Notes: a model not told the origin generated them from the sequence alone. A DNA stretch of 64,000 nt from Candidatus Nomurabacteria bacterium (GCA_023898465.1 CP060223.1:480001-544000); one strand, 5' to 3'; counted from the first letter of the stretch, positions 10,527-46,541 are shown. Made by a program: numbers and translations.

Positions 10527-11743
10527 GTCGACAGTGAACTTAAGATAACTTTACTGTTTTGCGTTACACCGTCCCGTAAGTAATTTATATCCACTTCAGC
10601 GCCTATAGTCACGGACTGGAGTAATTGCTGCAAGCTGTGGGACTGGTCAATATTTTGACCATTCACGGAGATAATGATGTCGCCGTCTTGTAGACCCGCC
10701 TCGCTGGCCGGCCCACCCTCAACAACTGCTGGGTCAGCCGCGGTCCCTGCCAACAAAAACCCATCATTTCGCTGATTCGTTTGGCTCTCACTTAATCCTA
10801 CTGAGTTATGCAAATCATAACCATGCACACCTAATCGAGTCCGTGTGATAAGTCCTGAACTGGTATAGGCCTGAAGAGCTGTTCGTATATATACAACAGG
10901 GAAAATACGATTTGGATTTTCTTGTTGCAAATATATACCTTGCAGAGAACCGTTTTGATCAACCACAATTGACCCCGGGCTCACCGCCGCTTCTCCACTC
11001 AGCAAAATATCGTGGGATAAGACCTCGCTTGATTCAAGCGAAAGCGGATCACTGTTTATTGATGCATTTGCGCTGACTAACTGCGTACTACGAATTTGCG
11101 GCACTCCAAGTGATCGATTCGCACTTAAAATATATAGCCCTTGCCCGGCGTGCAAATCCGCAGCTACACCAAAGCTCAATACTTGGTATTGCTCTCCGCT
11201 CACTTGACCAAGGCTTAGATCGCTAATTGGATCATAGGCAAGAATACTTACGTCCAACTTTTTTCCTGCATTAGTATATGCGACAACCTGACCACTAATG
11301 GTACTTGCATTAACTTTTCCATCAAAAACAAAGATACCATCAGTGGTAACAAAAGCTCCTGTACCAAGGTACGTGTACTGAGTATCCTCAACTTGATATA
11401 CACTAAGGAGTGATTGAGTCACTCGGTCATAAAGCGCCTGCCTGTCTTGGTCAATCCGATCGGTGCTCCCTGTCTCCCGAATAATAACCTCTCGAGCCTC
11501 ATTTGAGGTTTCTGCGAGACGAATATCTCGCCAAAAAGGCCATTGAGGGTTCTGTTGATATAGACTATTGAGAAGTACCATCCCTACTGCCCCAGATAAC
11601 AAACCAAATAGAACCGTGAAAAGAAGAATAGAAATCCAAGAAACTCGTTTACTTGGTTGCTCAATTGTACTTTGGTTATAAAGCTTCTCAACTGAGGCTT
11701 CTTGGGAATATTTTGGGGATGTGGGAGCGATCTTTGGTTTCAT
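10523..11743 (-). CDS. membrane-anchored HtrA-like trypsin-fold + PDZ protein, catalytic His apparently missing
   Basis: N-terminal TM helix. GTGAFVTTDGIFVFDGKV aligns to the GSG...TN.HV block but has no His. C-terminal PDZ-like GLQDGDIIISVNGQNI. ATGA overlap with the S8 gene. Confidence 0.6.
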   Translation of the reverse strand: MKPKIAPTSPKYSQEASVEKLYNQSTIEQPSKRVSWISILLFTVLFGLLSGAVGMVLLNSLYQQNPQWPFWRDIRLAETSNEAREVIIRETGSTDRIDQDRQALYDRVTQSLLSVYQVEDTQYTYLGTGAFVTTDGIFVFDGKVNASTISGQVVAYTNAGKKLDVSILAYDPISDLSLGQVSGEQYQVLSFGVAADLHAGQGLYILSANRSLGVPQIRSTQLVSANASINSDPLSLESSEVLSHDILLSGEAAVSPGSIVVDQNGSLQGIYLQQENPNRIFPVVYIRTALQAYTSSGLITRTRLGVHGYDLHNSVGLSESQTNQRNDGFLLAGTAADPAVVEGGPASEAGLQDGDIIISVNGQNIDQSHSLQQLLQSVTIGAEVDINYLRDGVTQNSKVILSSLST

Positions 11744-11753
11744 ACTTGTACAA

Positions 11754-12518
11754 CTAAACCCAGGAGGCGGTTCCTAATATAATCACGAGTAAGATAAATG
11801 ATAACACAAGAGGACGCAGTATCATGTTGCGTTCAATTTTCTCCTTTAATGCAGCCCGATGCATGGCCACCAAGGTGTAGTAAATGATTGTAATAACAGC
11901 TCCATTTACAATGAAATTTGTTGGAAAAAAGCTCATCACGATAAAGACCTCACTGAGCATGATGGAAAAAACAGCAAACCAGCGCCAACCCCGCACATCC
12001 AGGGTCTTTTTTACCCATAACATTTCATAAGAAACGCTCACGACTACTAAAACCCAAAAAGGCAAGAGCATGAACCAGTTAAATCCCAAAAAAACTATCA
12101 TTCCGTAAAGAGAGGCGCTGGCAAAGAACATAACCACTAACGCAAATCCATTTGAAAGGTTTTCTAAAGCAAAGGGTTGATATCTACCCGGCGAGTAGTG
12201 GTAATGAAAGATTTGTCGATAATAAAAACCAAGAGCAAACGGGATGATAATAGTGATGCCCCATCGAATAAATGACGAGGTGATAAACAAGACAATACTT
12301 TGACTACTGAGATATAACCAAAATGGCAGGATAAGAAGTGACCAAAAAGTTAGCGACCTCCACTGCCGTCCAGCTAGCAAATACACACTAAGGATATTCC
12401 ACACCGTGAGAATGGCGCCGATTATCCAAACTAAGCCAGGACGGAGAGTGAGGACAAACATCCCGCTAAGGAAGACTATTGTTGAAAAGGCTGGTAAAAA
12501 TCTAATAAACGCAAGCAT
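11754..12518 (-). CDS. polytopic membrane protein, unknown function
   Basis: 254-aa ORF with ~8 hydrophobic helices. No recognisable motif. Confidence 0.55.
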   Translation of the reverse strand: MLAFIRFLPAFSTIVFLSGMFVLTLRPGLVWIIGAILTVWNILSVYLLAGRQWRSLTFWSLLILPFWLYLSSQSIVLFITSSFIRWGITIIIPFALGFYYRQIFHYHYSPGRYQPFALENLSNGFALVVMFFASASLYGMIVFLGFNWFMLLPFWVLVVVSVSYEMLWVKKTLDVRGWRWFAVFSIMLSEVFIVMSFFPTNFIVNGAVITIIYYTLVAMHRAALKEKIERNMILRPLVLSFILLVIILGTASWV

Positions 12519-12519
12519 G

Positions 12520-13137
12520 CTATATTCTTCCTAAACCATTTGGGTTATAACCGTTTTTTACCTCTTCGCCATCACTAAAACCGTCACCATCGCTATCTTC
12601 TTCAGTCGGATCAGTTTGATATACATACACCTCTAGAAGGTCGTTTAAGCCATCACCATCGGTGTCGCTTTTCTCTGGGTCAGAGCCATATTGCGCCTCT
12701 AGACGATCGAGTAGTCCATCATTATCTGTATCGGTTCGATATGACACCGAGCTATTTACATTACTCGTATTCGTATTTTGATTTACTGCCCTACTGCTTG
12801 ATGTAGCACTCGTCTGAGTTTGCTGGACTTCACTTGCATTTGTTCCTGGTTGACGTTCAGGTAAAATTCGACGGATCGAATCTTGTAATGCATTCGTGGT
12901 GGAATTTGTTGTTGCTTCAGAGTCATCTTTTTTTGGCACGAGTAAAAGAATTCCACCCCCAACTATTACAATCCCGCTGAGAGAAAGGAGTAGCATGGTA
13001 AATACCCGAGGACTCTTGGGCGATATAACTTTCTTAACATCTGGCTCACTAAATGCGACTGGTTCATCAGGCAAACCAGGACTGTTCAGGGTCCCGCGAG
13101 AGTCGTCGTGCTCAAATTCTGAGTTGGTCTCGGGCAT
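12520..13137 (-). CDS. membrane-anchored protein with thrombospondin-type-3-like Ca-binding Asp repeats
   Basis: TM helix, an N/T/S-rich linker, and C-terminal DTDNDGLLD...DTDGDGLND...DSDGDGFSDGEEV. Confidence 0.65.
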   Translation of the reverse strand: MPETNSEFEHDDSRGTLNSPGLPDEPVAFSEPDVKKVISPKSPRVFTMLLLSLSGIVIVGGGILLLVPKKDDSEATTNSTTNALQDSIRRILPERQPGTNASEVQQTQTSATSSSRAVNQNTNTSNVNSSVSYRTDTDNDGLLDRLEAQYGSDPEKSDTDGDGLNDLLEVYVYQTDPTEEDSDGDGFSDGEEVKNGYNPNGLGRI

Positions 13138-13143
13138 AGCTCA

Positions 13144-13863
13144 TTAACTCTCGAGTCGACCGGATCCCAGAGGGCTATATCCGTTATTTACCTCTTCACC
13201 ATCCAAATAGCCGTCGCCATCGGAATCAGGGTTCAATGGATCGGTGTTATATATGTACACTTCTTTAAAATCGCCAAGATCGTCTCCATCGCTATCACTT
13301 AGGGTTGGATCAGTACCAAGAGCAGCCTCTTGCGTATCAGTTATGCCATCTCTGTCAGTATCAACGTTGGAATTTGTGTTTTGCGCACTGCTGTTTTGAT
13401 TCGACTGATTTGTACTTGTGTTCGTGTTTGACGTATTTGTAGCCTGATTAGCATTTGAGGTGTTTGTATTTGTGGTAAATTCGGTACCAGTATTCAAATT
13501 ACTCGTATTAGTATTGCTTGTGCGATTTACCACAGTGTTACTTGCCTGATTGCTTACCGTATTGGTCGTTTCTGTATTTACATTAGTATTGGTGTCGCTG
13601 GGTAAAAAGAAGAAGTAATATGCAGCCGCTCCACCCGCTACCACCACCAGGATAACGAGGAGTACCCAAAGCCAAGCCTTAGATCCTTTTTTAGGTGGAG
13701 GCGTTTGTGCCTGCCACTGAGGCTGAGGCGGAGTATTTTGATTTTGTTGCGGAATAAAGGGATTTTGAGGTGCTGGCGGAGGTGTAGCTTGTGGAAAACT
13801 TGGAGCTGCACGCATGCCTTGATCTGGCTGCGCTGTTGGTGTTGACTCTTGGTTCTCAAACAT
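13144..13863 (-). CDS. paralog of the preceding gene: Pro/Gln-rich head, TM helix, N/T/S-rich linker, TSP3-like Asp repeats
   Basis: I place the start at Met42 of the track ORF (MFENQES...). The C-terminus DTDRDGITD...DSDGDDLGD...DSDGDGYLDGEEV is colinear with 12520-13137. Confidence 0.6.
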   Translation of the reverse strand: MFENQESTPTAQPDQGMRAAPSFPQATPPPAPQNPFIPQQNQNTPPQPQWQAQTPPPKKGSKAWLWVLLVILVVVAGGAAAYYFFFLPSDTNTNVNTETTNTVSNQASNTVVNRTSNTNTSNLNTGTEFTTNTNTSNANQATNTSNTNTSTNQSNQNSSAQNTNSNVDTDRDGITDTQEAALGTDPTLSDSDGDDLGDFKEVYIYNTDPLNPDSDGDGYLDGEEVNNGYSPLGSGRLES

Positions 13864-14032
13864 ACAAATCCCCTTTACATTAATTACAACGCCTTGAGTG
13901 TACCTGATTTTATAAAAAAAGACTAGAGAATAATATCGAGAGATTGTCAACTCTCTACCAAAAAGCCCCAGTTGGTACTGGAGCATGATTGGTATCGCCG
14001 GCTTACTAAGGAATTCGGCGAGAAGTTCTCAA

Positions 14033-16742: not shown

Positions 16743-17360
16743 CTAGACTGGGGAGTCTAGATCGTCTTCTGCCACTTCAGTCGGAAATTCTTCGAGTGGT
16801 GCTACTGGAGTACCGTCGGACTTTTTGATGATATTTTCCACAGCTGCCCACTGGCTATCCTTTTCTTTTGGCACCAAAATAACGATCTCATCGCCTACCT
16901 CGCCTTTAAAATACGTCACACTGGCCAAAAGCACTTTATATGCTCGATTGGCAGCCGCAACCTCGAATTCGCCACTGGTTTCATCGCGCAATAATTGACC
17001 AATGAGTCGTTGTCGCTCAGTTGGGCCAATCTGCTTATACACAAACGAACCATCGGTCATAATAGTGAGTTTAAGGCGATCGCCTTCAACTAGCTTGGAT
17101 TTTGAGGCATAGTTTGCCGGCACCGAGTACTGCTTGCCATCAGGTCCCAGCATATTTTGACCGTCAAAGAGGCCTTCAACTACTTTGGCGCCGTTTTCAA
17201 CAGTCATTTTACCGTTTTGACGAGCCTGAGCTAAGAGGTCGGTATTTGCGCCAACTGCCTCTGTGCCATCATCCTCAAGCATGGCCTTGGCTCTCGCTAG
17301 GCTCTGCTCGGCACTTTCAATCAATTGACGTATGATTTTTGCGTTATTTCCGTTACTCAT
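16743..17360 (-). CDS. conserved hypothetical protein
   Basis: I place the start at MSNGNNAK (Met18 of the track ORF). Acidic C-terminus. No motif recognised. Confidence 0.55.
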   Translation of the reverse strand: MSNGNNAKIIRQLIESAEQSLARAKAMLEDDGTEAVGANTDLLAQARQNGKMTVENGAKVVEGLFDGQNMLGPDGKQYSVPANYASKSKLVEGDRLKLTIMTDGSFVYKQIGPTERQRLIGQLLRDETSGEFEVAAANRAYKVLLASVTYFKGEVGDEIVILVPKEKDSQWAAVENIIKKSDGTPVAPLEEFPTEVAEDDLDSPV

Positions 17361-17407
17361 TTTGGCTTTCTTTGTGGAAACAGCATAGCAGCCTTTCCCC
17401 CCTGTCG

Positions 17408-17944
17408 TCAACGTATATAGAGGTAGACTGTCCCGCTCTTTGGATCAGGTTTATCAGCCTTTTTTGGAGAAATATTGGGGAAAGGAAAAGCATAGCTTAC
17501 TAAGCGACTTCCCGGTTTTGCCTCGGCTAACCACTTCTTTTCAAGCTTAGCCATGGCTTTTGGAGTAAGAAAACAGGCAATTAGATCGGCTTGATCAAGC
17601 TTCTGATGAAAAAAATCTCGGAAATGCATTTTTGCCTGTGATCGAGCTAAACCGCGCAAACGCCATAACGAGGCAAGGTAAGGAAGAAGCGAAATCTCAA
17701 AACCCTCCGCCCGAGCCTGATATTGCTTTACCGCATGAAGCAAAAAGCGGCCGTCACCGGCTCCCAGGTCCATGACAAGCTCGCCTGGCTGGACATTGCT
17801 TAACTGAAACATCCGCTCAACATCACGTTGACGAGTAGGAAGCCAAGGCGCTGCCCGCAAGCCAGCGAAAGCAGCGCTACCAAGAAATAAAATAAGAAAG
17901 ACAAAGAAGATGAAAATTGGCGATGTGGAAGCGAGGCTTACCAT
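17408..17944 (-). CDS. membrane-anchored class I SAM-dependent methyltransferase
   Basis: N-terminal TM helix followed by motif I VMDLGAGDGRF. Confidence 0.7.
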   Translation of the reverse strand: MVSLASTSPIFIFFVFLILFLGSAAFAGLRAAPWLPTRQRDVERMFQLSNVQPGELVMDLGAGDGRFLLHAVKQYQARAEGFEISLLPYLASLWRLRGLARSQAKMHFRDFFHQKLDQADLIACFLTPKAMAKLEKKWLAEAKPGSRLVSYAFPFPNISPKKADKPDPKSGTVYLYIR

Positions 17945-17955
17945 ATTAAGGCGAC

Positions 17956-20581
17956 CTATGCTTTACCATTAGCGAACCTTGGCCAAGGCCAAAGAGCACT
18001 ATGATACAAGTAATAAATCCCGTTGCGATAAGCGCAAAACCCACAGTAGACCCGCTCAAAATAAATACTCCATACCAAAGTGGGCTGACGAGACAATTCA
18101 CGGACCTGCTGTGCTGCTAATTCGGGGTTTGATGCGGTCGGCGGCAATGACTGCATATTAAAAGCACGAGCCGCAGTATTCTGTATCAAAAGCTTCACAT
18201 ACGCATTATAGCGCTCAATGTTAATCACATCATACTCATTAAAGACCGGTGAAAACTGTCGAGCAAAAACTTCTGCATCTTCCGCCCACCCGGAAAGCCA
18301 ACAAAGTCCCAACTGTACCCAAGACCGCGTCTCGCATGGTCGACTTACCGTCTTCAATAAGCTGACCTAGATATTGATGCGCAAGTGTTAAGCAGAGTCG
18401 ATACTTACGCGCTTCGGAAAGAATAGTTGCAATTGATGGCGTAATAAAATTTTGAAATTCATCAATGTACAGGTAAAAATCTTTGCGCTCTGTTTCAGGC
18501 AAAGCCGCCCGTGACATTGCGGCCATTTGAAGCTTGGTTACCAGGATAAGCCCAAGCAGATTAGAGTTCACTTCACCGGTCCGTCCCTTGGAGAGGTTCA
18601 CCAAGAGTATTTTTTGTTCATCCATTATTTTCCTAAAGTCAAACCCGGAGTGCGGTTGACCAATGATGTTGCGCATCATGCGGTTTTCTACAAAGCGACC
18701 GACTTTAGAAATAAGATAGCCAAGCATTTCGGACTTGTGGAAGTCTGAAGTCTGTGCCATTTCCTTTTCCCAAAAAGCCCGAACAACCGGATCTTGCACC
18801 TTACTCAACTTATATCGCTGGAAAGTCTTGTCAGTAAACATGCGTGGAATATCAACAATCGTTCCTGGTGCCTCGCGATCAGCCGCTAAAGTAAGCATAA
18901 CGTTACGCATATTATGCTCAAACATCGGGCCAATCATTTCTGGCGGGAAAAGCTTGTAGAAAATGGCAATCATTTCTTGTATAGCAAAGTCGATTTGCTC
19001 TTCTCCCTCAGCATCAAGCATATTCAAGCCAATGGGACGCTCAGTATCAGCCGGCTCAAACAATACCACATCCTTCATGCGTTCTTCTGGTATCGAGCCC
19101 AGTAAATGCTCAACTAAATCACCATGCGGATCAATCACGCAGACACCTTCACCGTTGCGAATATCCTGCTTGGCCATTTCCTGCATTTCAACCGATTTAC
19201 CTGTGCCGGTAATACCAATGATATAGGCATGACGGCGACGATCTTCTCGCGAAATACGTATGGGCGTGCGAGCGCCCCGATAGATATTTGTACCAAGTAA
19301 GAGACCTTCCTGTGGCACATTGACCGGTGGTGGCGCCTTACGAGCACCCAACCAAAGAATATTTGGAGTCTCAATCGTGGCTGAGGGCAGGTGATAAAGA
19401 CTGGCCAATTCCTCAGTATTTAACACATAGCGACGGCCCTCATTAAAACTACGATAAACAAAGTCCCGCACAAAACGAGTTTTAGAAAGGAGGGAGCGTT
19501 GTCGAAATCCATTACCTGATTCTGGTGAGGTGTATTGGGAAAAGGCATTCACCACGGCCTGATGAATCATGCGTGCTCGCGCTAGGGTTTGGGAGGCGGC
19601 AATGACACGTATATTCACATGAAAACCTGATTTAGAAGACTTTACCCCAATAGCCTCCACCTTACTCTGCTCAGCCGGCGTCATTTGATATGGAGTCATT
19701 TCCCGTTCCATCCGCTGCCGTCGATCAGCTTCACTTGTACCAGAGACGCTTGATTGCAAAGTACGGAAAGTGGCGCCCAGCACTGACATAGCACCTGAAT
19801 TACCTTGCCCAACCGGCTTACCATCCTGAATACGTCTGGCAATAGCATGTCCGCTCTTTTGCCAGCTCGTACCTGCCGGACGCAAGACCATTTGAATTGC
19901 CGCGCCTTCATTAGGGTCCAGCTTTGACATCACATTAGTTAATGCGTTCAGTGGATCAGACTCAAGTGTACGGTAGCTGCGTATTGGATAGGCGGAAGCT
20001 TTTGCGAGCGTCAAATAACTTCCCGCCACATAACCCTGCGGAGGGAAAATATTATAGTCAGGCACTTCCTCAATATGCGCCATGGGATATTGCGCTTGTA
20101 CTTGTGATTCGAGGAGCTGCTGCAAGTGTCTCGGTACGGCCATGTAAAACTTTATCAATCCCTTTTGCGCAACAATTTCAAACGCGAGATGATCGGTTCG
20201 GCCATAGAGAAAATTATACCAAGCGTTCGTAAGAATATTTGCGTGCTGTTCAGCCTTGATGCCAGCTAGGTTGGCATAGAGCGTTTCTGCCACGGAGAGG
20301 AGTTCGCGCGGATCACTTGGTTGATGTTCATCTTGCGCCGCCTCTTTAGGCACTGTTACGAGCAGTACTACATGCTCCAAAGCAACTGGCACACGATGCT
20401 TTGCTCGCACATACCAGCGAATTAACCAGAGGGCTAATACAACAACCAGCCCAAAAAGCACTATTGGCCATACTACTTGCACTATAGGTTGCTCAAAAAA
20501 ACTCTGGCTAATATCTTCAACCGAGGGGGTGGCTAAACTTCCACCTGGCCCGCCTATTTGTAATAATGCACCAAAAATCAT
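17956..20581 (-). pseudogene. VirD4/TraG/TraD-like type IV coupling-protein ATPase, reading frame broken near 18283-18287
   Basis: Walker A IIGITGTGKSVEM and Walker B FYLYIDEFQNF, with an N-terminal TM region. The 780-aa frame ends ...LLAFRVG+junk. The conserved continuation AEDAEVFARQFSPVFNEYDVINIERYNAYVKLL is in the adjacent frame (track ORF 17956-18357). Confidence 0.7.
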
Positions 20582-21099
20582 AAATCCTTTTCTGGATGAC
20601 GTAAGCGCAAAATCTTATCTGTCTTAATTTTTGCTTCTTGCTCGAGATAATATTGACTCACGCCCGGGATAAATCGTAGCCAACGTAAAATAACCTTCGT
20701 TATGGCCTGTACCTTTACTTTTACCGCACTCAGCAATTCGGTAACCTTTTGAGCGGTTTTTTCTCCTTCTTGTTTGAAGCGCTGCTGCTGCTCAGGACTC
20801 ATCCCGCGAAAAACCTCTTGCAGATTTTCCTCCAAAATAGCCTCTACCTGCTGCGCTGGCGTACCATAAGGGAGGGCCGGCTCTATTTGACTGGTCTTAG
20901 TCTGCGGTTGAGCAATTCGTCGTCGAGATTCCGTATCAGAATGTATTTTTTCCTGCTCGTGTTGCGACTCACTTTCAAGAACCCTTTCAGGCTGCGGAGC
21001 CTGTTCAATCCCAAATTCAGGAGCTATCGCCTCGGGCTTTGCACGCTCTGGCGAAAAAGCCGGTGGTGCTTCTTGATGTTCCTTTGTTTGATCAGCCAC
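20578..21099 (-). CDS. hypothetical protein (acidic, low-complexity N-terminal half)
   Basis: GTG start preceded by AAGGGG..GGGGAA. ATGA overlap with the ATPase gene implies translational coupling. Has its own TTGAGA-N17-TATACT promoter upstream. Confidence 0.55.
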   Translation of the reverse strand: MADQTKEHQEAPPAFSPERAKPEAIAPEFGIEQAPQPERVLESESQHEQEKIHSDTESRRRIAQPQTKTSQIEPALPYGTPAQQVEAILEENLQEVFRGMSPEQQQRFKQEGEKTAQKVTELLSAVKVKVQAITKVILRWLRFIPGVSQYYLEQEAKIKTDKILRLRHPEKDL

Positions 21100-25693: not shown

Positions 25694-26068
25694 TTACACT
25701 GAGACAAAGCTTTTTGCATAGGTGATGGCTTCATCCATGCCGCCTTCGTATTTCACCACGTACTGATCAGCCACTTCCCTACCTGCTTGCATATCCACGC
25801 GTGAACATAGGGAGCTAAGGAGTATTAAGGGGATGTGCTTTGTACGCTGGTCAGCTTTAATGCAACGAGCAGAGGCAATTCCATTCATCACTGGCATAAC
25901 AATATCTGAAATTATCAGGTCCGGCTTTTCATTCATAACTATAGATACCGGATCAGCACTTGGGTTAGTAAAGTGTCGCACCTCAAAGCCAGCTTGGCGC
26001 AGACGCTGGCCAAACTTTTCTGCAAAAGCTGGGTCATCTTCAAAATGAAGTACTCGAGGTTTAGACAC
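25694..26068 (-). CDS. stand-alone response-regulator receiver domain protein
   Basis: 124 aa. DD pair (FEDD), phospho-acceptor DLIISDIVMP, conserved K near the C-terminus. Confidence 0.8.
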   Translation of the reverse strand: MSKPRVLHFEDDPAFAEKFGQRLRQAGFEVRHFTNPSADPVSIVMNEKPDLIISDIVMPVMNGIASARCIKADQRTKHIPLILLSSLCSRVDMQAGREVADQYVVKYEGGMDEAITYAKSFVSV

Positions 26069-26147: not shown

Positions 26148-26834
26148 ATGAAAATACTACTCATCGAAGACAACCCAGAAATCCGTGAGTTTCTCAAGCC
26201 GGCTTTAGAAGCGGAGGCTTTTTCAGTTGATATTGCTGAGAATGGTAACATTGGTGCAAAAATGTCATGGGATCACACCTATGACTTGATTATTTTGGAC
26301 TACATGCTGCCGGATAAAAATGGCTGGGAAGTATGCCAAGAAATAAGAAATCGTGGAAATAAGGTACCTATTCTCGCACTTTCGGTGGTAAATGATACCG
26401 AAAAGAAAGTAGAATTTCTCAACTCAGGCGCTGATGACTATCTCACGAAACCTTTTTCCTTTAATGAATTATTAGCCAGAATTAGGGCACTTTTGCGTCG
26501 ACCCGATACTTTTGTGCACAATACACTGGCCGTTGGTGACCTTGAAATGGATCTCATTCAGCAAACAGTACGATGTGGGGGCCAAGAAGTATATCTAACT
26601 CGCAAAGAGTTTGAATTATTGGAGTATTTAATGCGAAACCCAGATCGTCCTTTATCCCGAGGAATGATTATTGAGCATGTCTGGGATATGGCAATTAATA
26701 CTTTTTCAAACACAATAGAAACGCATATTTTCAATTTGCGTCGGAAGCTCAATGAAAAAGCTTCGCGACAAATAATCGAAACACTCCCGGGTCGAGGTTA
26801 TAAAATAAGTTCAGTTTCCAAAATCACTTCTTAA
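26148..26834 (+). CDS. OmpR/PhoB-family response regulator
   Basis: REC domain (DLIILDYMLPDKNG) plus winged-helix (LTRKEFELLEYLMRNP...VWD...TIETHIFNLRRKL). Confidence 0.9.
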   Translation: MKILLIEDNPEIREFLKPALEAEAFSVDIAENGNIGAKMSWDHTYDLIILDYMLPDKNGWEVCQEIRNRGNKVPILALSVVNDTEKKVEFLNSGADDYLTKPFSFNELLARIRALLRRPDTFVHNTLAVGDLEMDLIQQTVRCGGQEVYLTRKEFELLEYLMRNPDRPLSRGMIIEHVWDMAINTFSNTIETHIFNLRRKLNEKASRQIIETLPGRGYKISSVSKITS

Positions 26835-27051
26835 GATAAAGTTAAGCAATTCTTTATCTCACCTGCTCTATAGTACATGTGCGCCTTGCTGGTCGACATT
26901 GCGCAGTAGTACAAATTTAATAGGAATAAGCCACATGAGCACCTTACTGGAGCAAATGCTCAACCAAGTTGAGACGCGGGGGGAATTGCAGAGCACCGAA
27001 ATTGCTCTGCAGCAAAGTGAGTTCCAGCCCTGGTCTCCCTGATAGCGCAAA

Positions 27052-28506
27052 ATGAACGCTCCGACGCCTCAGTTTGGAAACGGCTTTTTTTCAAAACCGA
27101 ACTACCCGCGTAAGGGCGTTCATTTTTTTCGTCTGCTTTTTGCACTTAAATCCATTGATGAGGATAAGCGTCGTAAGGAATTTATTCTCCTTATTATTCT
27201 GACGACCTCCATACTTATTGTCCTAGCGCTGAATCTCAGCGTACTTATTCGATTACTGCAAAGCCCTGACTTCACCGATCTGCGAGTTGCCGTCCCTTTC
27301 ATCATACTTCTCGCCTTTGTTTTTCTCTTCTGGTTAATGAAAAAACAACACATTACGATTACATCGTACATTGTCGTTGGAGTATATTTCTTCAGTATAA
27401 GCTTTGCTGCTTATACTTGGGGTATTGATTTGCCGGCCGCACTACTGAGTTTTGGTGTCCTCCTTTTTATTTCCGGAATGCTTATTTCAGCTCGCTTTGG
27501 TATTGGCTTGGCTATTGCCACTGCGGCTATCTTGATTTATTTTGCGTATCTGGAAGAGCACGGTATACACACACCGGACCGAGCCTGGATACAACAAGGG
27601 ATACGAGTAAGCGATGCCATAAATTTTTCTATCATACTGCTCTTTTTAACTGTGATCTCATGGCTGGCTAACTCCCAAATCAATAAATCTTTGCAACGCG
27701 CTCGATATTCTGAGGAAGCCCTGAAACAAGAGAAAGACCTACTAGAAATTACGGTACAAAATCGCACAAAGGCTTTGCGAAAAATTGAGCTACAAAAAAT
27801 ATCCGAGCTGTCTCAATTTGCTGAATTTGGCCGACTAGCAGCAGGACTGTTTCATGATCTCATTAATCCACTTAATGGCCTGCTCTTAAATATCCATCGC
27901 CTCTAACAAAGTGATGAAGCAAAGCAAGGAGACACACAAGAACGTATACAGCAAGCCGTAAAAGTAGGAGCTAAATTACAAGAATTTATTCAAAGGATTA
28001 AAAAGCAAATTAGTCGGGAACAAAGCCATGAAATATTTTTCCCAGCAAATGAGATTAGCGATGTTATCGAGCTACTGCGATACCAAAGCACTGAAGCAAA
28101 GGTGCATATCGCCTGCGTGACCACTAGAGAAATTTCCATTTATGGCTCCCCTCTCCTGTTTAGACAGCTCATACTCAATCTCCTAACCAACGCGATTGAG
28201 GCGTATCAAGGAACTGAGCAAAAAGATAAAACTGTACTCATCACACTTCATGCAGATAATGCAAATAATGAACTGAGCGTCCGAGATCATGGAGTTGGTA
28301 TCCCGAAAGATAAGCTCTATAAAATATTTGAGCCATTTTATACGACCAAGCCTAGTGATACTGGGATAGGCATTGGACTATCCACCGTTAAAAGTATTGT
28401 TGAGCAAGAATTGGGAGGAAGTATTAAGGTGCAAAGCGGCGAATATACAACCTTTACCATTCGTTGGCCTCAAAACTCTTCACCGACGCGACATGGAGAA
28501 CACTAA
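27052..28506 (+). pseudogene. sensor histidine kinase interrupted by one in-frame TAA (27904-27906)
   Basis: Track ORFs 27052-27906 and 28102-28506 are in the same frame, and the 195 nt between them have no further stop. The H-box FHDLINPLNG is just before the stop. The N box LLTNAIEA and G boxes DHGVGIP / GIGIGL come after it. Confidence 0.75.
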
Positions 28507-30439
28507 TGCGCAGATCATCAAACAAGGACTACGTTACCTACAAAACATACAAACAAAAGAAGGGGGCTTCCTCAGTCAATCAAGCCCACTAAGCGAAAAA
28601 AATCCCAGGGGAATTCCGCGCCTCACGAGTTTTTTTACTTCACATGTACTTTTTTGCCTTGCTCAACTTCGCGAGTACACTGAAACAGAACTCATCATTA
28701 AGAAAGCCGAGCATTTTTTACGTTCACAAATTAACGCGCAGGGTTCATTTAATTACTGGAATAGAACAAGTACAGAGGCTACACAAATCCCCTATCCGGA
28801 TGACCTCGATGATACGATATGTGGATGGAATGCGCTCCATCTACTTCACACCGACGGTCTAAGCGGCGCTGAGTTGGCCAAGCTCACTCAACTCCTTATT
28901 CATCAGGAAGAGCAACCCGGCGGACCCTACCGCACCTGGCTACTGAATTCTCACTCCCCTGATGGTGAATGGTCAGATACTGATTTGGCAGTCAATGCAC
29001 ATATCGCCCGCCTTTTACGTTACCTCGGAGTAAAAACACCGCGCCTAGATGCTTTTTTAGAAAATGCATTGCGACAGGAAGTTCTCCTCTCGCGATATTA
29101 TCCTAGCTCCTTCCCAATCCTCTATGCGCTCTCCTATCGTAGCCCTCAAAAACATTCAAGCTTTATTCTACGTCATATCAAGAAGCTCCAACTCCCTGAC
29201 GGCACCTGGGGTAATCCATTACATAACGCTTTAGCTATTGAAACGCTGAGGGAGCTTGGCATTCGAGAAAATGAATTCGATAGCACTCGTGCGCAACAGT
29301 CCTTACGGGAAGCTCAAGAAAAAGGAGCTTGGCCAGCCATTGCTTATTGTATTGATCCCTGCTTCGAGGGCGAACAAATGATTGCTCGATCGAGCGCCCT
29401 TACAACCGCATACTGCCTACTTGCACTACATCAAAAAGAGAAAAAATCTCCTGTAACTATCGCAAAGGCAAATGAAAGCGAGGCGCGCTTTCTGCATGAC
29501 GTCCATCAAATTCTTTCTTATAAAATTACTAGTCTTGCGCCAGAGTTACAAGATCAGGGTAAGCAAACAATACTGCACTTTATTGAAAAAAAAGAAAACG
29601 CACATATCGCACTCCTCTCTTTACTAAGTTACCGAGCACTTTCCTCAAATATACTTAGATCCGACTATGAGTATCTGCTACGTCTCGCAATAAATAATAT
29701 CTATGGATGGATTGCCTATGGCATTTACGATCACATTCTCGATGAAAAAGATCTCATTGAGAAGCTACCTCTCGCCAATGTTTTACTCCGCACTCTTCAA
29801 TCAGAATACACTAAGCTTTTGCAATATATCCCGGGAGGTATTACTTATCTCGAAAACACTCTTAATGCCATAGACGCGGCTAATGCATGGGAAATTGACC
29901 ATTGCCGACTACACGTTAATGAAAAAAAACTTAAGCTACCCCAACACTTGCCTGCATTTAAGGATCTTTCGCAGCTAGCACAAAAAAGCTTTGGACATGC
30001 ACTACCAGCAATAACGGTATTTGCGCTCCACGGCTATAGCTTAGAAGAAGCTCCCCTTCAACATTTGCAAAACTTTTTTAAACACTTCCTCATAGCACGT
30101 CAGTTAAACGATGATGCACATGACTGGCTTACTGACTTAACAAAAGGAAGAATCACGCCAGCCAACCTGCGGGTGATTAAAAAAATATCAACTAAAGAAA
30201 TTAACTTTCAAGAGGATCTTACAAAACTAAAAAAAATGTATTGGGAAGAATGTATCAATGATATTAGTCAAGAAATTCTTCAGCATATTGCTGAAGCAAA
30301 AAATGAGCTTGGACAAATTAATATAGCAAATCCTGAGTACCTCAGCTCACTTCTTCACTCCTCGGAAACTGCAGCTAAAGAGGCAAAAAAACAAAGTAAG
30401 CAAATACTAGGCTTTCTAAAAAACTTTCATCCAGCCTAG
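28493..30439 (+). CDS. two-domain isoprenoid enzyme-like protein: N-terminal prenyltransferase/squalene-cyclase-repeat domain, C-terminal squalene/phytoene-synthase-like domain
   Basis: I place the start at MENTNAQ (ATG 28493). DLDDT (28802-28816) resembles the class II cyclase DxDD(T). QW-like repeats include QLPDGTWG. C-terminal DHILDE (29729-29746) and NDDAHDWLTDLTKGRI (from 30107) resemble the two Asp-rich motifs of the SQS/PSY family. Motif-level call only. Confidence 0.55.
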   Translation: MENTNAQIIKQGLRYLQNIQTKEGGFLSQSSPLSEKNPRGIPRLTSFFTSHVLFCLAQLREYTETELIIKKAEHFLRSQINAQGSFNYWNRTSTEATQIPYPDDLDDTICGWNALHLLHTDGLSGAELAKLTQLLIHQEEQPGGPYRTWLLNSHSPDGEWSDTDLAVNAHIARLLRYLGVKTPRLDAFLENALRQEVLLSRYYPSSFPILYALSYRSPQKHSSFILRHIKKLQLPDGTWGNPLHNALAIETLRELGIRENEFDSTRAQQSLREAQEKGAWPAIAYCIDPCFEGEQMIARSSALTTAYCLLALHQKEKKSPVTIAKANESEARFLHDVHQILSYKITSLAPELQDQGKQTILHFIEKKENAHIALLSLLSYRALSSNILRSDYEYLLRLAINNIYGWIAYGIYDHILDEKDLIEKLPLANVLLRTLQSEYTKLLQYIPGGITYLENTLNAIDAANAWEIDHCRLHVNEKKLKLPQHLPAFKDLSQLAQKSFGHALPAITVFALHGYSLEEAPLQHLQNFFKHFLIARQLNDDAHDWLTDLTKGRITPANLRVIKKISTKEINFQEDLTKLKKMYWEECINDISQEILQHIAEAKNELGQINIANPEYLSSLLHSSETAAKEAKKQSKQILGFLKNFHPA

Positions 30440-30463: not shown

Positions 30464-31108
30464 TTAATTTTTCACGCTAATCCCGCCAAACATAGCCGTA
30501 CCCTGAATTGTCAGAGTCTTGCTCGCATTTGGATCGGGTTGTGATTTATCCTCTGAGCCACCTAAGATCGGTGTTACATTCATCACCACCCGCACATTTT
30601 TTGGCACAATAATATCAATACCAGCAAAACTGGCTGATGCGTTCAGGACTGATTGCTCAGCCAAATCTGCTTCGCGAAAATCTAACTTAATGCCACCGAA
30701 CCAGGCTGAGCTTTGTCCTTCCTTAAAATGACCAGTCACTTTGCGTTCTATACCGCTAAATACCACGCTTGCATCAGCTGACCCTTGATCCTCCTTCATC
30801 CTTCCATCCCATTGCTTTCCCATGACGATCCGGGCACCAAAGACAATGATAATGATTGGCCAGAATAAGGTCCAGGCAGATTTCGCAAAGAGATCGAGTT
30901 GATCAATAAACAATAATAAGCCAACTAAAATAATGAGGGCCGGACCAAACCACATGCGACGATTATTATTCAATGCGTAAAAACCTACTGCGATTATTGC
31001 CAAGGACCACCAAAAATTTGGTAGATTGTCTGCCCAAGCAAGATCAAGCTGCTGCAGGAGAAAACCCAAGCCTAATAAAATCAAGAAAAAACCTATAAGT
31101 TTGCGCAT
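30464..31108 (-). CDS. LiaF-like (DUF2154) cell-envelope stress membrane protein
   Basis: 4 N-terminal TM helices. The C-terminal domain has FGG..LDF..A.L......ASFAGIDIIVP..V.V..... FGG repeats. Confidence 0.55.
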   Translation of the reverse strand: MRKLIGFFLILLGLGFLLQQLDLAWADNLPNFWWSLAIIAVGFYALNNNRRMWFGPALIILVGLLLFIDQLDLFAKSAWTLFWPIIIIVFGARIVMGKQWDGRMKEDQGSADASVVFSGIERKVTGHFKEGQSSAWFGGIKLDFREADLAEQSVLNASASFAGIDIIVPKNVRVVMNVTPILGGSEDKSQPDPNASKTLTIQGTAMFGGISVKN

Positions 31109-40034: not shown

Positions 40035-41186
40035 CTAATTATCTATTTCAAAATCCCAGAGTGCTTGTACCTGCGACGCGCTTAGGCCGGTGCGTGTCGC
40101 AATCTCTTGAGCCAAACTTGAGGTGCTGGTATTTGCAGAGGTCCACTCATAGCGCTGTGTATCACCACGGCGGGCTTTAATTTCTGTGCCATCTTCACGT
40201 ACCCGGACTTCTATTTCCCATTGGGCTTCTTCTTCATCGCCGTGATCCTCTGAATCGTTTGAATTACTATTACTGTTATGTGAATTGGTATCATCATTCA
40301 CATTTCCTTCATGAGAGTTGGTTGCATCTACATGCGTATTCTTATTATCATTTCCATGATCATCATTGGTGTCAGAATGGTCATCACTGCTATTGGCATT
40401 TTGCAGATCTACACCATCATACTCAATTTTGATAGCTGCCCGAACTTGGGCTTCGCTTAAGCCTAAACGGTCGGTAACTGCTTTAATAATTTCTTCACGA
40501 TCAGTCGTAGTCAGGGTAAACTCACTGTGCTGATTTGCTACTTCAGCCTGAACAAAGGCTTGTGCACCAGCTACGTGCACTTCAATTTCAATTCGCTGAA
40601 GACTATGACTGTTTTGTGCGTCTTCAATCTCACGCAGTTTTACTTCAACGTTACTTAGCGTCGCTGCAGCATGCTCATTTTCTTTGGCTTCTAATTCATC
40701 GCGCACTTCAGCTACGGTTTGTTGCGCATTTTGCAGAGCGGAATTTACATGATCAGCAGCATCTCGAGCTAGTTGCTCCTTTTGCTCTTGCTCTAACTCA
40801 GCTAGCTCTTTTGCTCGCTCAGCTGCAATCTCAGCCTGGATGCGGAGTCGCGCCTCAGCTGAGGTGGCTAAATTTAAACGGACTTGCTCGACGGCTTGAT
40901 CAATACCAAAGAGCCAATCTCCTGGCTTGGCATTATTCGCTGCGAGGACAGTGCCGGTGCCGCTGCCTAATAACACGATAGCGATAAGGATGCTTGCAAT
41001 CATATTTTTGTGATTAAGGAAAAAACCTGATCGCTGCTTATATCGATCAGCTTCCGGGACTGTTACGCTCGATGCAGCCATACGCAAACGAGCCTCAATA
41101 CGTTCACGGGCAGCCGGAGATAAAGACTGAGAATGAGACATCTTTAACAGCTTGATAATTTCTTTTGATGAAAAATGTTTCGACAT
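40035..41186 (-). CDS. anti-sigma-factor-like membrane protein (DUF5667-like): cytoplasmic head, TM helix, coiled coil, His/Asp/Asn-rich region
   Basis: Lies immediately downstream of the ECF sigma gene. One TM helix (ASILIAIVLLGSG). Two similar ...GLS(E/A)(A/S)QV... modules. Confidence 0.55.
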   Translation of the reverse strand: MSKHFSSKEIIKLLKMSHSQSLSPAARERIEARLRMAASSVTVPEADRYKQRSGFFLNHKNMIASILIAIVLLGSGTGTVLAANNAKPGDWLFGIDQAVEQVRLNLATSAEARLRIQAEIAAERAKELAELEQEQKEQLARDAADHVNSALQNAQQTVAEVRDELEAKENEHAAATLSNVEVKLREIEDAQNSHSLQRIEIEVHVAGAQAFVQAEVANQHSEFTLTTTDREEIIKAVTDRLGLSEAQVRAAIKIEYDGVDLQNANSSDDHSDTNDDHGNDNKNTHVDATNSHEGNVNDDTNSHNSNSNSNDSEDHGDEEEAQWEIEVRVREDGTEIKARRGDTQRYEWTSANTSTSSLAQEIATRTGLSASQVQALWDFEIDN

Positions 41187-41190
41187 ATAT

Positions 41191-41736
41191 TTACGAATAA
41201 GAGAGTTGTTCCATTTCCTTGCGTAAGGCTTGCAAAGCCCTATGTTTCAATACGCGCACATTGAGAGCACTGATCTGCATTACTTTTGCCACTTCACTTA
41301 TACTTAGATCCTCTCGATAAAGCATATGGAGCAGAGTTGCGTAGCGTTCAGGAAGGCGGGTTAAGGCTGATTCCATTTCCCGCTCCATTATTACATCTGG
41401 CATCTCATCCGGATCACTTGATAAAGTATGACTCACGCTCTCAATATCAACCTGGGTGCGTTGGCCACGATAATGATCAATCAAGCGGAAACGGGCAATT
41501 TGAAAAAGCCAGGTAGAGAATTTTGCATGTTTCTGCTCCTTATATCGGGGCAATGAGCGAATCATTTCAAGAAAAACAGTTTGGGTTAAATCCTCAGCTG
41601 TTTCCTGACTACTGACCCGCATAAGCAAGAAACGGAACACCCGGTCTCCGAAAAGGTGGAAAAGTTCGGCCACCCCTTCTTGATCCCCTTGTTGCGCTCT
41701 GGCGACGATTTCCTGTACTTGGCTTTCGTGTTGCAT
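41191..41736 (-). CDS. ECF-type sigma-70 family RNA polymerase sigma factor
   Basis: Region 2 (DLTQTVFLEMIRSL..Y....KFSTWLFQIARFRLIDHYR) and region 4 (ISEVAKVMQISALNVRVLKHRAL). Confidence 0.9.
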   Translation of the reverse strand: MQHESQVQEIVARAQQGDQEGVAELFHLFGDRVFRFLLMRVSSQETAEDLTQTVFLEMIRSLPRYKEQKHAKFSTWLFQIARFRLIDHYRGQRTQVDIESVSHTLSSDPDEMPDVIMEREMESALTRLPERYATLLHMLYREDLSISEVAKVMQISALNVRVLKHRALQALRKEMEQLSYS

Positions 41737-42745: not shown

Positions 42746-43528
42746 TTAAGGCCGGAGAGTACCGGAAAACATTTGCCAGGCTAGAGCTGATTTCGCCACC
42801 AGGGACAAAATCATATAGGCCTTTTCACCGTAGAGATAGTCCTGCCATTTCCCTATCTTCTTATACTGCAGGACCATGTTAATCGCGAAGATGTTAAAGG
42901 TGACAAAGATGGTGGCCACAATGAAATAAACAAAGGTAGGAATCTCCACTCCGGTCGACTGTACCGCGCCAATGAAGAAAGCAACAATGACCAGCCAGGG
43001 AATTAAGCCAGCCAAAACTCCTATCCAGTACGAAAGCCAATTCGTATGCTTGGTCGTCTGATTATGTACTTCCATCATCAAGCCCATGAGATTCATAATC
43101 GCATTCAAGGCAAACAGCGAAATGAGTAGCCAAAGATCGTACACACCACAAAGCATGGCAATAACTACAATCATAACTGACGAGGATAAGGCATACTCAG
43201 CCCAACGCAGCTTGTTGATGCCCTTTTTCAAATTCTCCTCATACCATTCCCGCAAAGGTCCGGCTAGAAGGAAATGCGCAAAAGCAGAAAGGAAGAGAAA
43301 GACCGCTACGGTGGGGCCTAAGCGTAAGTCAAACAAATGCTCAGGAAGTGGAGCTACACCAAAAACTGGATTATTTGGATCGATTTTCAGGTATGAAGTA
43401 ACAACTGGTAAAGATGAATTATTGCTTATCAAAACCATAATGACGCCTTGCACGAAGTGAAGGGCGGCCATTGACCAATTCCAGACTTGTAGTTTTTTTA
43501 ACTGCTCTTTTTGACTACGCATTTTCAT
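42746..43528 (-). CDS. heliorhodopsin
   Basis: 260 aa, 7 TM. RWAEYALSSSVMIVVIAMLCG and GEKAYMILSLVAKSALAWQMFSGTLRP closely match my recollection of heliorhodopsin 48C12 (RWVEYSLSSSVMIVLIAQICG; GERAYIVLSLVAKSALAWQIFSGTLIPA). This includes the Schiff-base Lys and the counterion Glu. Confidence 0.85.
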   Translation of the reverse strand: MKMRSQKEQLKKLQVWNWSMAALHFVQGVIMVLISNNSSLPVVTSYLKIDPNNPVFGVAPLPEHLFDLRLGPTVAVFLFLSAFAHFLLAGPLREWYEENLKKGINKLRWAEYALSSSVMIVVIAMLCGVYDLWLLISLFALNAIMNLMGLMMEVHNQTTKHTNWLSYWIGVLAGLIPWLVIVAFFIGAVQSTGVEIPTFVYFIVATIFVTFNIFAINMVLQYKKIGKWQDYLYGEKAYMILSLVAKSALAWQMFSGTLRP

Positions 43529-46219: not shown

Positions 46220-46541
46220 AATCCCCTGTTGAAGCTTGCCGCACCCAGCGCTGCTCAATATAGAGCACTCGCCACCACCATCGCCCTAAGAAATACCCAC
46301 CAATCGCTCCAAGTAGTAACAAGCCAATTTGAATGTATGGTGGAAGCGCACATCCCCAGGTCCAATGTATAACCTGTCCATTTTTCTCAGCCCAGCTTAA
46401 ATACCACTGCTCAATTCCTAAATGTAACAGCAAACTTAACAGCACGCCGAACACAGTAGCGCTAATGAGATAAAGTGCATGTTTGAACGGGGTTGCTTTA
46501 AGTGGTCCGCGATGAAACATATTTAGAAAAGATTTAACCAA
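46203..46541 (-). CDS. small membrane protein
   Basis: 2-3 TM helices. Overlaps both neighbours by a few codons. Confidence 0.4.
   Translation of the reverse strand: MVKSFLNMFHRGPLKATPFKHALYLISATVFGVLLSLLLHLGIEQWYLSWAEKNGQVIHWTWGCALPPYIQIGLLLLGAIGGYFLGRWWWRVLYIEQRWVRQASTGDYEEKS

Follow-up and report, generated by a model that had tools for sequence, protein, structure and literature searches.

A fused class II terpene cyclase and isoprenyl-synthase-fold protein in a conserved four-gene module of CPR bacteria, a candidate maturase of a tryptophan peptide

The locus and its conservation

The window, a stretch of 64,000 nucleotides of Candidatus Nomurabacteria DNA, contains a module of four same-strand genes in the order regulator, Trp-peptide, six-TM kinase and enzyme:

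26148–26834, + strand: OmpR-type response regulator, first gene of the module
26922–26925, + strand: ribosome-binding site (AGGA) of the peptide ORF
26935–27042, + strand: predicted precursor peptide of 35 aa, MSTLLEQMLNQVETRGELQSTEIALQQSEFQPWSP; the leader is conserved, and a Trp stands three residues from the C-terminus
27052–28506, + strand: histidine kinase with six predicted N-terminal TM helices, an H-box (FHDLINPL) and HATPase_c
28493–30439, + strand: enzyme ORF, start ATG at 28493, product of 648 aa

The response regulator combines a receiver domain with a winged-helix Trans_reg_C domain (Pfam; Response_reg E = 1e-27, Trans_reg_C E = 2e-25). HATPase_c was matched in the downstream part of the kinase (Pfam, E = 2e-25), and its TM helices were counted by eye from the sequence. 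An in-frame TAA at 27904–27906 interrupts the kinase in the window. The longest reading frame for the enzyme, stop-to-stop from the first start codon (TTG), is 28373–30439; the 648-aa product is identical to a deposited hypothetical protein from a Candidatus Nomurabacteria MAG. A first-pass annotation of this DNA had placed the gene at 28493–30439, overlapping the end of the kinase gene, and both the DNA and its translation bear this out, with 14 nt of the enzyme gene overlapping the 3′ end of the kinase reading frame. A scan for promoters and terminators gave counts no higher than those in shuffled sequence. A LiaF-like gene lies just downstream of the enzyme in the window.

The arrangement is strictly conserved. 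A homologous kinase lies upstream of the enzyme gene on the same strand in all 85 loci with usable upstream DNA, so that a link to a two-component system, which the first-pass annotation had raised on the strength of the gene overlap, is far better founded than was supposed. Of the 75 related loci with at least 2.4 kb of upstream DNA, 65 have a homologous regulator there, also in same-strand orientation, and a small ORF is present in every locus that has the kinase and enough upstream DNA. No conserved exporter or leader peptidase adjoins the module in the seven loci with listed neighbours. The family comprises about 1,200–1,800 clusters at 50% identity and occurs in at least 330 CPR species of the Saccharibacteria, Microgenomates and Parcubacteria lineages. 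CPR/Patescibacteria have tiny genomes with few recognised signalling or secondary-metabolite systems, and the retention of this module by hundreds of species from several CPR classes must reflect an important function.

A single-barrel cyclase joined to an alpha domain

AF2 models of the enzyme were confident (pLDDT 92 and 94; pTM 0.87 for the two-domain model). The fold check that the first-pass annotation had proposed gave an alpha/alpha-barrel for the N-terminal half and a class I isoprenoid-synthase alpha fold for the C-terminal half. Neither half falls outside the terpenoid families and the Asp motifs are conserved, so that none of the refuting outcomes set out in that annotation was obtained. 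The domains and motifs are as follows:

28493–29440, + strand: N-terminal domain, monodomain (beta) class II terpene cyclase, residues 1–316
28802–28813, + strand: DxDD motif, D104-L-D106-D107, with D104 and D106 invariant (54 of 54)
29465–30439, + strand: C-terminal domain, trans-isoprenyl-diphosphate-synthase-like alpha domain and predicted prenyltransferase, residues 325–648
29729–29743, + strand: first Asp-rich motif, D413-H-I-L-D417, with D413 and D417 invariant; family consensus DDFLD
30101–30136, + strand: second motif, Q537-L-N-D540-D541-A-H-D544-W-x-x-D548, with Q537, D540, D544, W545 and D548 invariant

Conservation was scored on an alignment of 54 homologues at 27–37% identity. D104, D106, D413, D417, Q537, D540, D544, D548 and G552 are invariant in it, as is W545, and D103, D107 and D541 are conserved at 96% or more. 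Residue 414 is Asp in 47 sequences, Asn in five and His in one, the window copy. The motifs are not chance matches. The DLDDT that had been marked at 28802–28816 agrees exactly with the translation, and both C-terminal Asp motifs proved conserved in homologues as claimed, but their starts needed correction: IYDHILDE spans 29723–29746, 6 nt ahead of the position first given (29729), and the second motif, QLNDDAHDWLTDLTKGRITP, begins at 30101 rather than at 30107.

The N-terminal domain belongs with AsDMS and MstE among the monodomain (beta-only) class II terpene cyclases. It contains one alpha/alpha-barrel and no gamma domain. When the family profile was compared with PDB sequences, AsDMS (E = 1.2e-17 across residues 29–311) and AstC (E = 1.4e-5) were the sole detectable sequence homologues of this domain; MstE is structurally close, a likeness at the level of fold only. 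The drimenol synthase AsDMS and the fungal AstC are likewise monodomain beta cyclases with an aligned general-acid Asp (DDLDTT, compared with DDLDDT here). The catalytic general acid of AsDMS, D323 (PMC12232559), aligns with D106 in the same profile comparison. D106 is the predicted general acid, and the domain is predicted to act by protonation-initiated cyclisation.

The setting of this barrel differs from that of its relatives. The partner domain in AsDMS and AstC is a HAD-like phosphatase, in place of which the family here has the alpha domain, and MstE, an enzyme of merosterolic acid biosynthesis, is a stand-alone protein with a small-molecule substrate, whereas the N-terminal domain here is fused. 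A diphosphate-binding Arg cluster is a feature of the AsDMS sub-type and is not general to monodomain cyclases. In AsDMS, whose substrate is free FPP, R368, R370 and R415 hold the substrate phosphate (PMC12232559); these positions align with W160, D162 and P201 of the family, and the cluster is absent. Its absence fits a cyclase substrate that has no diphosphate head, for example a prenylated peptide.

Pfam and NCBIfam scans of the enzyme returned sub-threshold matches only (TED_complement, SQHop_cyclase_C and TIGR01787). SQHop_cyclase_C reached 18.2 bits against a cut-off of 26.1, and TIGR01507 reached 15 bits against a cut-off of 431. A squalene-hopene or oxidosqualene beta-gamma cyclase (PF13243, PF13249) was rejected on the single barrel. 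Of the first reading of this half, the terpenoid alpha/alpha-barrel and a DxDD motif that looks functional stand; the squalene-hopene-type beta-gamma assignment does not.

The C-terminal domain adopts the IPPS fold, all alpha, in which the two Asp-rich motifs face each other, and in structure it lies nearest to trans-isoprenyl diphosphate synthases and to the indole prenyltransferase Ord1. Searches of PDB sequences with the C-domain profile and with single sequences gave no real match, and the best 150 matches of the profile among 1.84 billion representatives all belong to the family itself. The class I isoprenoid-synthase fold proposed earlier for this half is supported, but the likeness to squalene/phytoene synthases is not: PF00494 was absent from a Pfam scan of the enzyme even at E ≤ 10, and head-to-head synthases are not the closest structures, so that candidate was rejected.

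PF00348 was likewise not matched in the Pfam scan, and the C-domain profile, compared by hhalign with E. coli IspA, gave a probability of about 1%, with no similarity. The hhalign comparison spuriously aligned the first motif of the family with the SARM of IspA. Chain-elongating synthases carry IPP-binding basic motifs, GKxxR, and RRG just after the first Asp-rich motif. Basic motifs of these types were not found in the C-terminal domain; its only conserved basic columns are R433, R472, K/R498, K/R536 and R603, and none lies within ten residues after the first Asp-rich motif. The lack of a PF00348 match, of similarity to IspA and of conserved basic residues just behind the first motif counts against an enzyme that simply elongates chains.

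The first motif shares its pattern with StheQ, in which the metal ligands D85 and D89 occupy the first and fifth positions and Glu the second, as D413 and D417 do the outer positions here. Q537, three residues before D540, matches Q212/N215 of StheQ, and a Gln one helical turn before the SARM or pseudo-SARM is common to ComQ, PalQ, ChrPC-P and Ord1 (PMC13290415); on its own the feature does not discriminate, since canonical IPPS enzymes also have FQxxDD (AFQVQDDILD in IspA). The second motif sets the family apart. ComQ and StheQ have a degenerate, metal-free pseudo-SARM (NDxxx), whereas the family here keeps a full DDxxD (D540-D541-x-x-D544) together with D548. The sequence shows no detectable similarity to that of ComQ-type enzymes.

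The tryptophan peptide and a proposed maturation route

Besides the window, 80 related loci have a syntenic small ORF (81 sources, 77 distinct sequences), which lies between the regulator and the kinase and is 34–40 aa long. Its consensus is M.xL(L/I)xK(I/V)LTDKxAR...(P)W followed by 1–6 residues, and MKELLEKILTDKATRSTEKVEAFASAQSEFGSWG is a homologue of the consensus type. The Trp is invariant, 1–6 residues from the end, with Pro directly before it in 56 of 77 sequences; five copies came from an HMM without selection for Trp, and it is present in these too. The window copy is a weak match to the HMM (E = 0.09 over 29,033 ORFs) at the exact syntenic position. The first-pass suggestion of isoprenoid-lipid tailoring overlooks this conserved Trp-peptide gene in the same operon.

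The constant pairing of the enzyme with a Trp-peptide gene and a sensor kinase points to a terpene-tagged peptide as the most likely signal. We favour, with a probability of roughly 0.55, the reading that the enzyme matures the peptide of a four-gene signalling module and makes a terpene-decorated Trp peptide rather than a squalene-type lipid. The two folds, the conserved catalytic residues and the strict synteny of the four genes across CPR lineages are observed; we infer the substrates, the prenylation of Trp, cyclisation on the peptide, export and sensing. Once the 35-aa peptide is produced, Mg2+ on D413 and D417 would anchor a prenyl diphosphate (probably the farnesyl or the geranylgeranyl one) in the alpha domain, which would move the prenyl group onto the indole of the conserved Trp, which Q537 and D540 might place on the model of ComQ, StheQ, PalQ and Ord1. 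D106 of the beta domain would then protonate the terminal C=C of the attached chain and so trigger cyclisation, for which there is a precedent in MstE and in the C domains of NctPC and ChrPC, two PC-fusion maturases. The cyclised terpene-peptide, perhaps leader-trimmed and exported, would be detected by the membrane kinase, which would signal to the OmpR-type regulator. As to the supply of the prenyl donor, a Pfam scan of 50 other ORFs in the 64-kb window found no prenyl-diphosphate synthase or isoprenoid pathway genes. This weighs against the reading, as do the complete second motif, the lack of similarity to ComQ-type enzymes, the lack of a conserved exporter or leader peptidase beside the module and the signs of decay in the window copy described below; the small ORF could also be a kinase regulator with no connection to the enzyme.

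A close parallel to the enzyme itself is found in ChrPC and NctPC, fused prenyltransferase-cyclases that, according to a review, prenylate a Trp and then cyclise the prenyl group (PMC13290415). They unite a prenyltransferase and an MstE-like monodomain class II cyclase in one polypeptide, as here; their acceptor is the Trp of a ribosomal peptide, and a Trp-containing precursor ORF adjoins the enzyme here. The P domain of ChrPC is described as trans-IDS-like, a likeness that the C-terminal domain here shows in its fold. The cyclase is N-terminal in our family. Unlike ChrPC and NctPC, the enzyme here is always operonic with a kinase and a regulator, and its hosts are CPR/Patescibacteria. The precursors of PC fusions are reportedly of the proteusin, Nif11 or lasso type, and the precursor here, a peptide of 34–40 aa, is of none of these types.

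The module as a whole resembles ComQXPA of Bacillus, in which ComQ prenylates the Trp of ComX, with ComP as kinase and ComA as regulator (PMC4008528). Both consist of four same-strand genes for an IPPS-fold enzyme, a short precursor with a near-C-terminal Trp, a multi-TM kinase and a response regulator; in ComQ, as proposed here, the first motif serves the donor and a Gln precedes the second motif. They differ in gene order, in the regulator (OmpR-type here, NarL-type in ComQXPA) and in the number of TM helices in the kinase (about six here, 8–10 there). The enzyme here carries a class II cyclase domain in addition, and its second Asp-rich motif is complete, where ComQ has a pseudo-SARM; ComQ is reported as a PF00348 protein, whereas the enzyme here has no PF00348 match and no detectable similarity to it. 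PalP, PalX and PalQ of Paenibacillus are similarly a kinase, a precursor and a prenyltransferase (PMC10853753). PalQ and the Sphaerobacter enzyme StheQ are ComQ-like alpha-fold Trp prenyltransferases that adjoin Trp-containing precursors, in the Pal system also beside a histidine kinase, but unlike the enzyme here they have no cyclase domain. The Trp of StheX is second from the C-terminus, comparable to the near-C-terminal Trp of our peptide; the precursor PalX is of the NHLP type, and its Trp is terminal.

A broader and more tentative proposal, to which we give somewhat less than even odds, is that this CPR-wide module both makes and senses a ribosomal peptide with a cyclised terpene on its near-C-terminal Trp, so that these ultra-small and largely episymbiotic bacteria would have a native system of pheromone signalling or quorum sensing, ComX-like but terpene-cyclised. 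Such a system would use a cyclase-prenyltransferase fusion with no detectable sequence kinship to ComQ. A literature search turned up no account of such a signalling system in CPR/Patescibacteria. If the proposal is correct, CPR bacteria would have a peptide pheromone system, with cell-cell or symbiont-host communication possible, and the family would be a large natural set of compact maturases that join a cyclase to a prenyltransferase and act on short precursors, of use in lipidating peptides and in terpene-peptide biocatalysis. It would also provide a clear fusion of a beta-only class II cyclase with an alpha domain, which bears on how domain combinations evolved in terpene synthases.

Competing explanations and neighbouring genes

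An unlikely but credible alternative is a bifunctional enzyme of free terpenoids, whose alpha domain would form a prenyl diphosphate, or ionise one, for the beta domain to cyclise, either as a prenyltransferase with a class II cyclase (as in fungal PvCPS) or as a class II with a class I activity (as in labdane-type diterpene synthases). The product might be a membrane lipid or a small signal, controlled by or reporting to an intramembrane kinase in a DesK-like manner; the small ORF, which could be an unrelated regulator of the kinase, would then be an unrelated kinase accessory. The complete DDxxD with D548 resembles a second site for metal, which would be in keeping with a canonical class I enzyme or an elongating one. 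Against this, the enzyme is no member of PF00348 and has no similarity to IspA, the beta domain lacks the Arg residues with which AsDMS binds diphosphate, and the invariant Trp of a small ORF that every locus keeps across CPR classes is left unexplained.

We consider it improbable that the protein is a non-catalytic sensor accessory that binds an isoprenoid, for example undecaprenyl (di)phosphate, and modulates the kinase in envelope stress. Its strict pairing with an intramembrane-type kinase and the LiaF-like gene next to it in the window would fit such a role, but that neighbour is not conserved at the other loci (seven with listed neighbours), no TM segment was noticed in the enzyme by eye, and an invariant general-acid Asp and seven invariant acidic or polar active-site residues, kept over deep divergence, points to catalysis. 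A squalene-hopene-type cyclase joined to a head-to-head squalene/phytoene-like synthase for tailoring isoprenoid lipids is highly improbable given the folds described above, even though the C-terminal motifs can be written by eye in SQS/PSY-like form (DxxxD...QLxxxxxDxxxDxxxGR) and SQHop_cyclase_C gives weak sub-threshold matches.

One further gene had been mentioned as a possible partner:

42746–43528: heliorhodopsin (Pfam, E = 2e-98)

It lies 12.3 kb downstream of the enzyme, in agreement with the distance of about 12 kb first noted. The speculative link between the two finds no echo elsewhere, as proximity is not conserved in the seven loci with listed neighbours, and a role in retinal or heliorhodopsin function was rejected on this ground and because no carotenoid-type enzyme is present here. 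The copy of the module in the window may itself be decaying, as suggested by the nonsense codon in its kinase, the divergent leader of its peptide and a first Asp-rich motif that reads DHILD.

Conserved neighbours of the fused enzyme

The enzyme ORF is real: positions 28373–30439 form an open stretch in frame +2, within which the ATG at 28493 starts a 648-aa protein. In a protein database search it was identical to a hypothetical protein deposited from a 1.08-Mb contig of a Candidatus Nomurabacteria MAG. The first-pass annotation had read this protein as a squalene-cyclase-like half followed by a squalene/phytoene-synthase-like half. Its DLDDT motif is placed exactly (28802–28816); IYDHILDE and QLNDDAHDWLTDLTKGRITP are also present, at 29723–29746 and from 30101, each 6 nt away from the position first assigned. 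The overlap reported between the gene start and the end of the histidine-kinase frame amounts to 14 nt.

The decisive finding of our analysis is the conserved gene context. Seven loci were retrieved by exact-protein look-up, and across them conservation next to the enzyme gene was limited to same-strand neighbours: an OmpR-type regulator, usually a 34–38-aa ORF, and a kinase of about 450 aa whose end abuts or overlaps the enzyme gene. No exporter or leader peptidase was conserved near the module in these seven loci. In the window, the module includes the following (transmembrane segments counted by eye):

26935–27042, + strand, peptide ORF MSTLLEQMLNQVETRGELQSTEIALQQSEFQPWSP, with AGGA 9 nt upstream of the ATG
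27052–28506, + strand, histidine-kinase frame with six hydrophobic N-terminal segments joined by short loops, an H-box and HATPase_c
28493–30439, + strand, enzyme

We extended the upstream survey to 87 loci, of which three are duplicates. Where 2.4 kb or more of upstream sequence was available (75 loci), a kinase ORF always ended within 200 nt of the enzyme start; with 0.6–2.4 kb it did so at 8 of 10 loci. Both apparent exceptions do have an upstream kinase: in one the gap is 243 nt, and in the other, from a Patescibacteria MAG (L017:1635–2351, + strand), an extra 238-aa ORF separates kinase and enzyme gene, the sole such insertion among 85 loci checked. The regulator was present in 65 of the 75 loci with at least 2.4 kb upstream. 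The small ORF between regulator and kinase was found at every locus with a kinase and enough upstream DNA (80 related loci plus the window, 81 sources, 77 distinct sequences). Its leader is conserved, M.xL(L/I)xK(I/V)LTDKxAR, and its middle is variable; a Trp 1–6 residues before the stop is invariant and is preceded by Pro in 56/77 sequences. Five small ORFs with non-ATG starts, recovered by HMM without selecting on Trp, all carry it (5/5).

The family is large. We recovered over 120 full-length homologues (28–38% identity, nearly all of 620–675 aa) by searching 5.8 billion proteins. A profile of the C-terminal half matched 1,855 proteins at E ≤ 1e-3 (1,237 at E ≤ 1e-30) among 1.84 billion cluster representatives. 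In about three-quarters of the best 150 of the 1,855 matches, this domain starts near residue 325 and runs to the C-terminus of a 620–700-aa protein, and the fusion is therefore the usual form; shorter proteins among these 150 may be fragments. Pfam family PF28380, precomputed on three members (homologues P0009, P0103 and P0114), may already cover part of the family. With one genome scanned per GTDB species, a relative was encoded in 330 genomes. Labels of the 80 fetched loci include Levyi-, Davies- and Shapirobacteria within Microgenomates, as well as Doudnabacteria, Saccharibacteria/Saccharimonadales, Moranii-, Colwell-, Paceibacterota/Parcubacteria or plain Patescibacteria. Some 'binchicken' MAGs that carry a relative under a Gammaproteobacteria label are probably mislabelled. 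Many module contigs titled 'uncultured Gammaproteobacteria', 'Vitreimonas sp.', 'Bacillota' or 'Methylomirabilota' were also seen (loci L015, L020, L025, L026, L028, L034, L035, L040, L081 and others); such titles on CPR-type contigs are probably taxonomic mislabels or bin contamination.

Cyclase and isoprenoid-synthase-fold domains

The AF2 model of the enzyme is confident (pLDDT 92, pTM 0.87). Invariant residues in a 54-sequence alignment include D104, D106, W160, D164, D413, D417 and E467, together with Q537, D540, D544, W545, D548 and G552. The N-terminal (beta) domain gave only below-threshold squalene-cyclase matches in Pfam and NCBIfam, and the family profile matched the cyclase domain of the bacterial drimenol synthase AsDMS (E 1e-17, residues 29–311) and fungal AstC (E 1e-5). 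Conserved aromatic residues are abundant in this domain in the same alignment, a richness typical of carbocation-stabilising cyclase pockets. D106 falls, in the profile alignment, on AsDMS D323, the catalytic general acid, and W160, D162 and P201 replace R368, R370 and R415, which hold phosphate at the AsDMS pocket mouth (PMC12232559). Because these arginines are replaced, the head group of the cyclase substrate is probably not a bare diphosphate bound as in AsDMS. Their loss fits a cyclase substrate that is already peptide-bound.

The C-terminal (alpha) domain has the superfamily fold first proposed for it; its assignment as squalene/phytoene-synthase-like was wrong. A separate AF2 model of residues 318–648 reached pLDDT 94. 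We found no match in Pfam, NCBIfam or PDB sequences, including with the profile, and hhalign gave about 1% probability against E. coli IspA; judged by sequence, the domain is no canonical synthase. Its conserved basic columns in the 54-sequence alignment (R433, R472, K/R498, K/R536 and R603) do not reproduce GKxxR or RRG, the IPP-binding motifs of elongating enzymes.

In StheQ, Mg2+ on D85 and D89, positions 1 and 5 of a first motif with Glu at position 2, holds the donor diphosphate; Q212 lies three residues before the pseudo-SARM (N215, D216, D219; SARM, second Asp-rich motif), 130 residues separate the motifs, and K174 is 41 residues before N215 (bioRxiv 10.64898/2026.08.29.745113). In our family D413 and D417 are invariant and position 414 varies; Q537, also invariant, precedes D540 by three residues, the motifs are 127 residues apart and K/R498 lies 42 residues before D540. 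By motif spacing, with no computed alignment, D413/D417, Q537 and K/R498 correspond to D85/D89, Q212 and K174. Ordinary synthases, too, can have a Gln ahead of the second motif (IspA reads AFQVQDDILD), so this residue is not diagnostic. ComQ and StheQ have a degenerate pseudo-SARM, whereas this family has a complete second motif plus D548, which leaves room for the alpha domain to act with metal as a canonical class I or elongating enzyme. A rival reading, in which the fusion makes a free terpenoid, builds on this difference.

A candidate peptide-maturation and sensing module

In combining an IPPS-fold enzyme and a short peptide that carries Trp near its C-terminus with a multi-TM kinase and a regulator, the module follows the logic of ComQXPA (PMC4008528), PalP/PalX/PalQ (PMC10853753) and StheQ/StheX (bioRxiv 10.64898/2026.08.29.745113). 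A 2026 review also describes fused prenyltransferase–cyclase maturases: in NctPC, with an ABBA-type P domain, and ChrPC, whose P domain is trans-IDS-like, the Trp of a ribosomal peptide is prenylated and the prenyl is then cyclised by an MstE-like domain (PMC13290415, citing Hubrich et al. 2024); we liken our enzyme to these fusions from that review's description. The most economical reading is that the CPR enzyme is a ChrPC/NctPC-like maturase within a ComQXPA-like sensing module. The alpha domain would prenylate the peptide Trp, the beta domain would cyclise the prenyl tail through D106, and the 6-TM kinase would sense the lipidated peptide. A Pfam scan of 50 other ORFs found no prenyl-diphosphate supply gene within the 64-kb window; any cell that makes undecaprenyl phosphate is expected to have FPP.

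Each kind of component is already known: monodomain class II cyclases, ComQ-type Trp prenyltransferases, PC fusions and ComQXPA loci. The literature searched apparently has no description of a cyclase–prenyltransferase fusion so firmly tied to a Trp-peptide, 6-TM kinase and OmpR regulator, or of such a module being conserved across CPR. The module is widespread, would not be expected in minimal genomes and can be tested directly.

State of the window copy and other features

The window's copy looks slightly eroded. Its kinase frame has an in-frame TAA (27904–27906) just after the H-box with the downstream ATPase domain intact, which may reflect a recent nonsense mutation, a split kinase or an error in the assembly. 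The peptide has a divergent leader (HMM E 0.09), and the enzyme deviates at 11 of 102 conserved columns, including D414H in the first motif, ranking 45th of 54. Just upstream of the peptide ORF is a 14-nt imperfect direct repeat, TGCTCTATAGTACA (26864–26877) and TGCGCAGTAGTACA (26900–26913), + strand, 36 nt apart; it may be fortuitous, or may serve an OmpR-type regulator as an autoinduction site.

Other features are on the − strand:

25694–26068, − strand, 124-aa stand-alone receiver protein (Response_reg only), divergent from and immediately upstream of the module regulator
30464–31108, − strand, LiaF-like membrane protein (LiaF-TM and LiaF-like_C domains), convergent with the enzyme gene
42746–43528, − strand, heliorhodopsin, near an ECF-type sigma factor (41191–41736) and a DUF5667 protein (40035–41186)
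46523–51943, − strand, very large ORF (1806 aa, GTG start)
16743–21099, − strand, region with a TrwB/VirD4-like coupling-protein ORF (18239–20581) and several flanking ORFs without a Pfam match
7731–13986, − strand, run of likely secreted or surface proteins

The LiaF-like gene was not conserved beside the module in the other loci examined. The heliorhodopsin noted in the first-pass annotation is confirmed, and the window showed no genes for retinal or carotenoids. The 16743–21099 region may encode type IV secretion or DNA uptake. The 7731–13986 run comprises an S8 subtilase with FG-GAP repeats (931 aa), an HtrA-like PDZ protease and two bacterial TSP3-repeat proteins.
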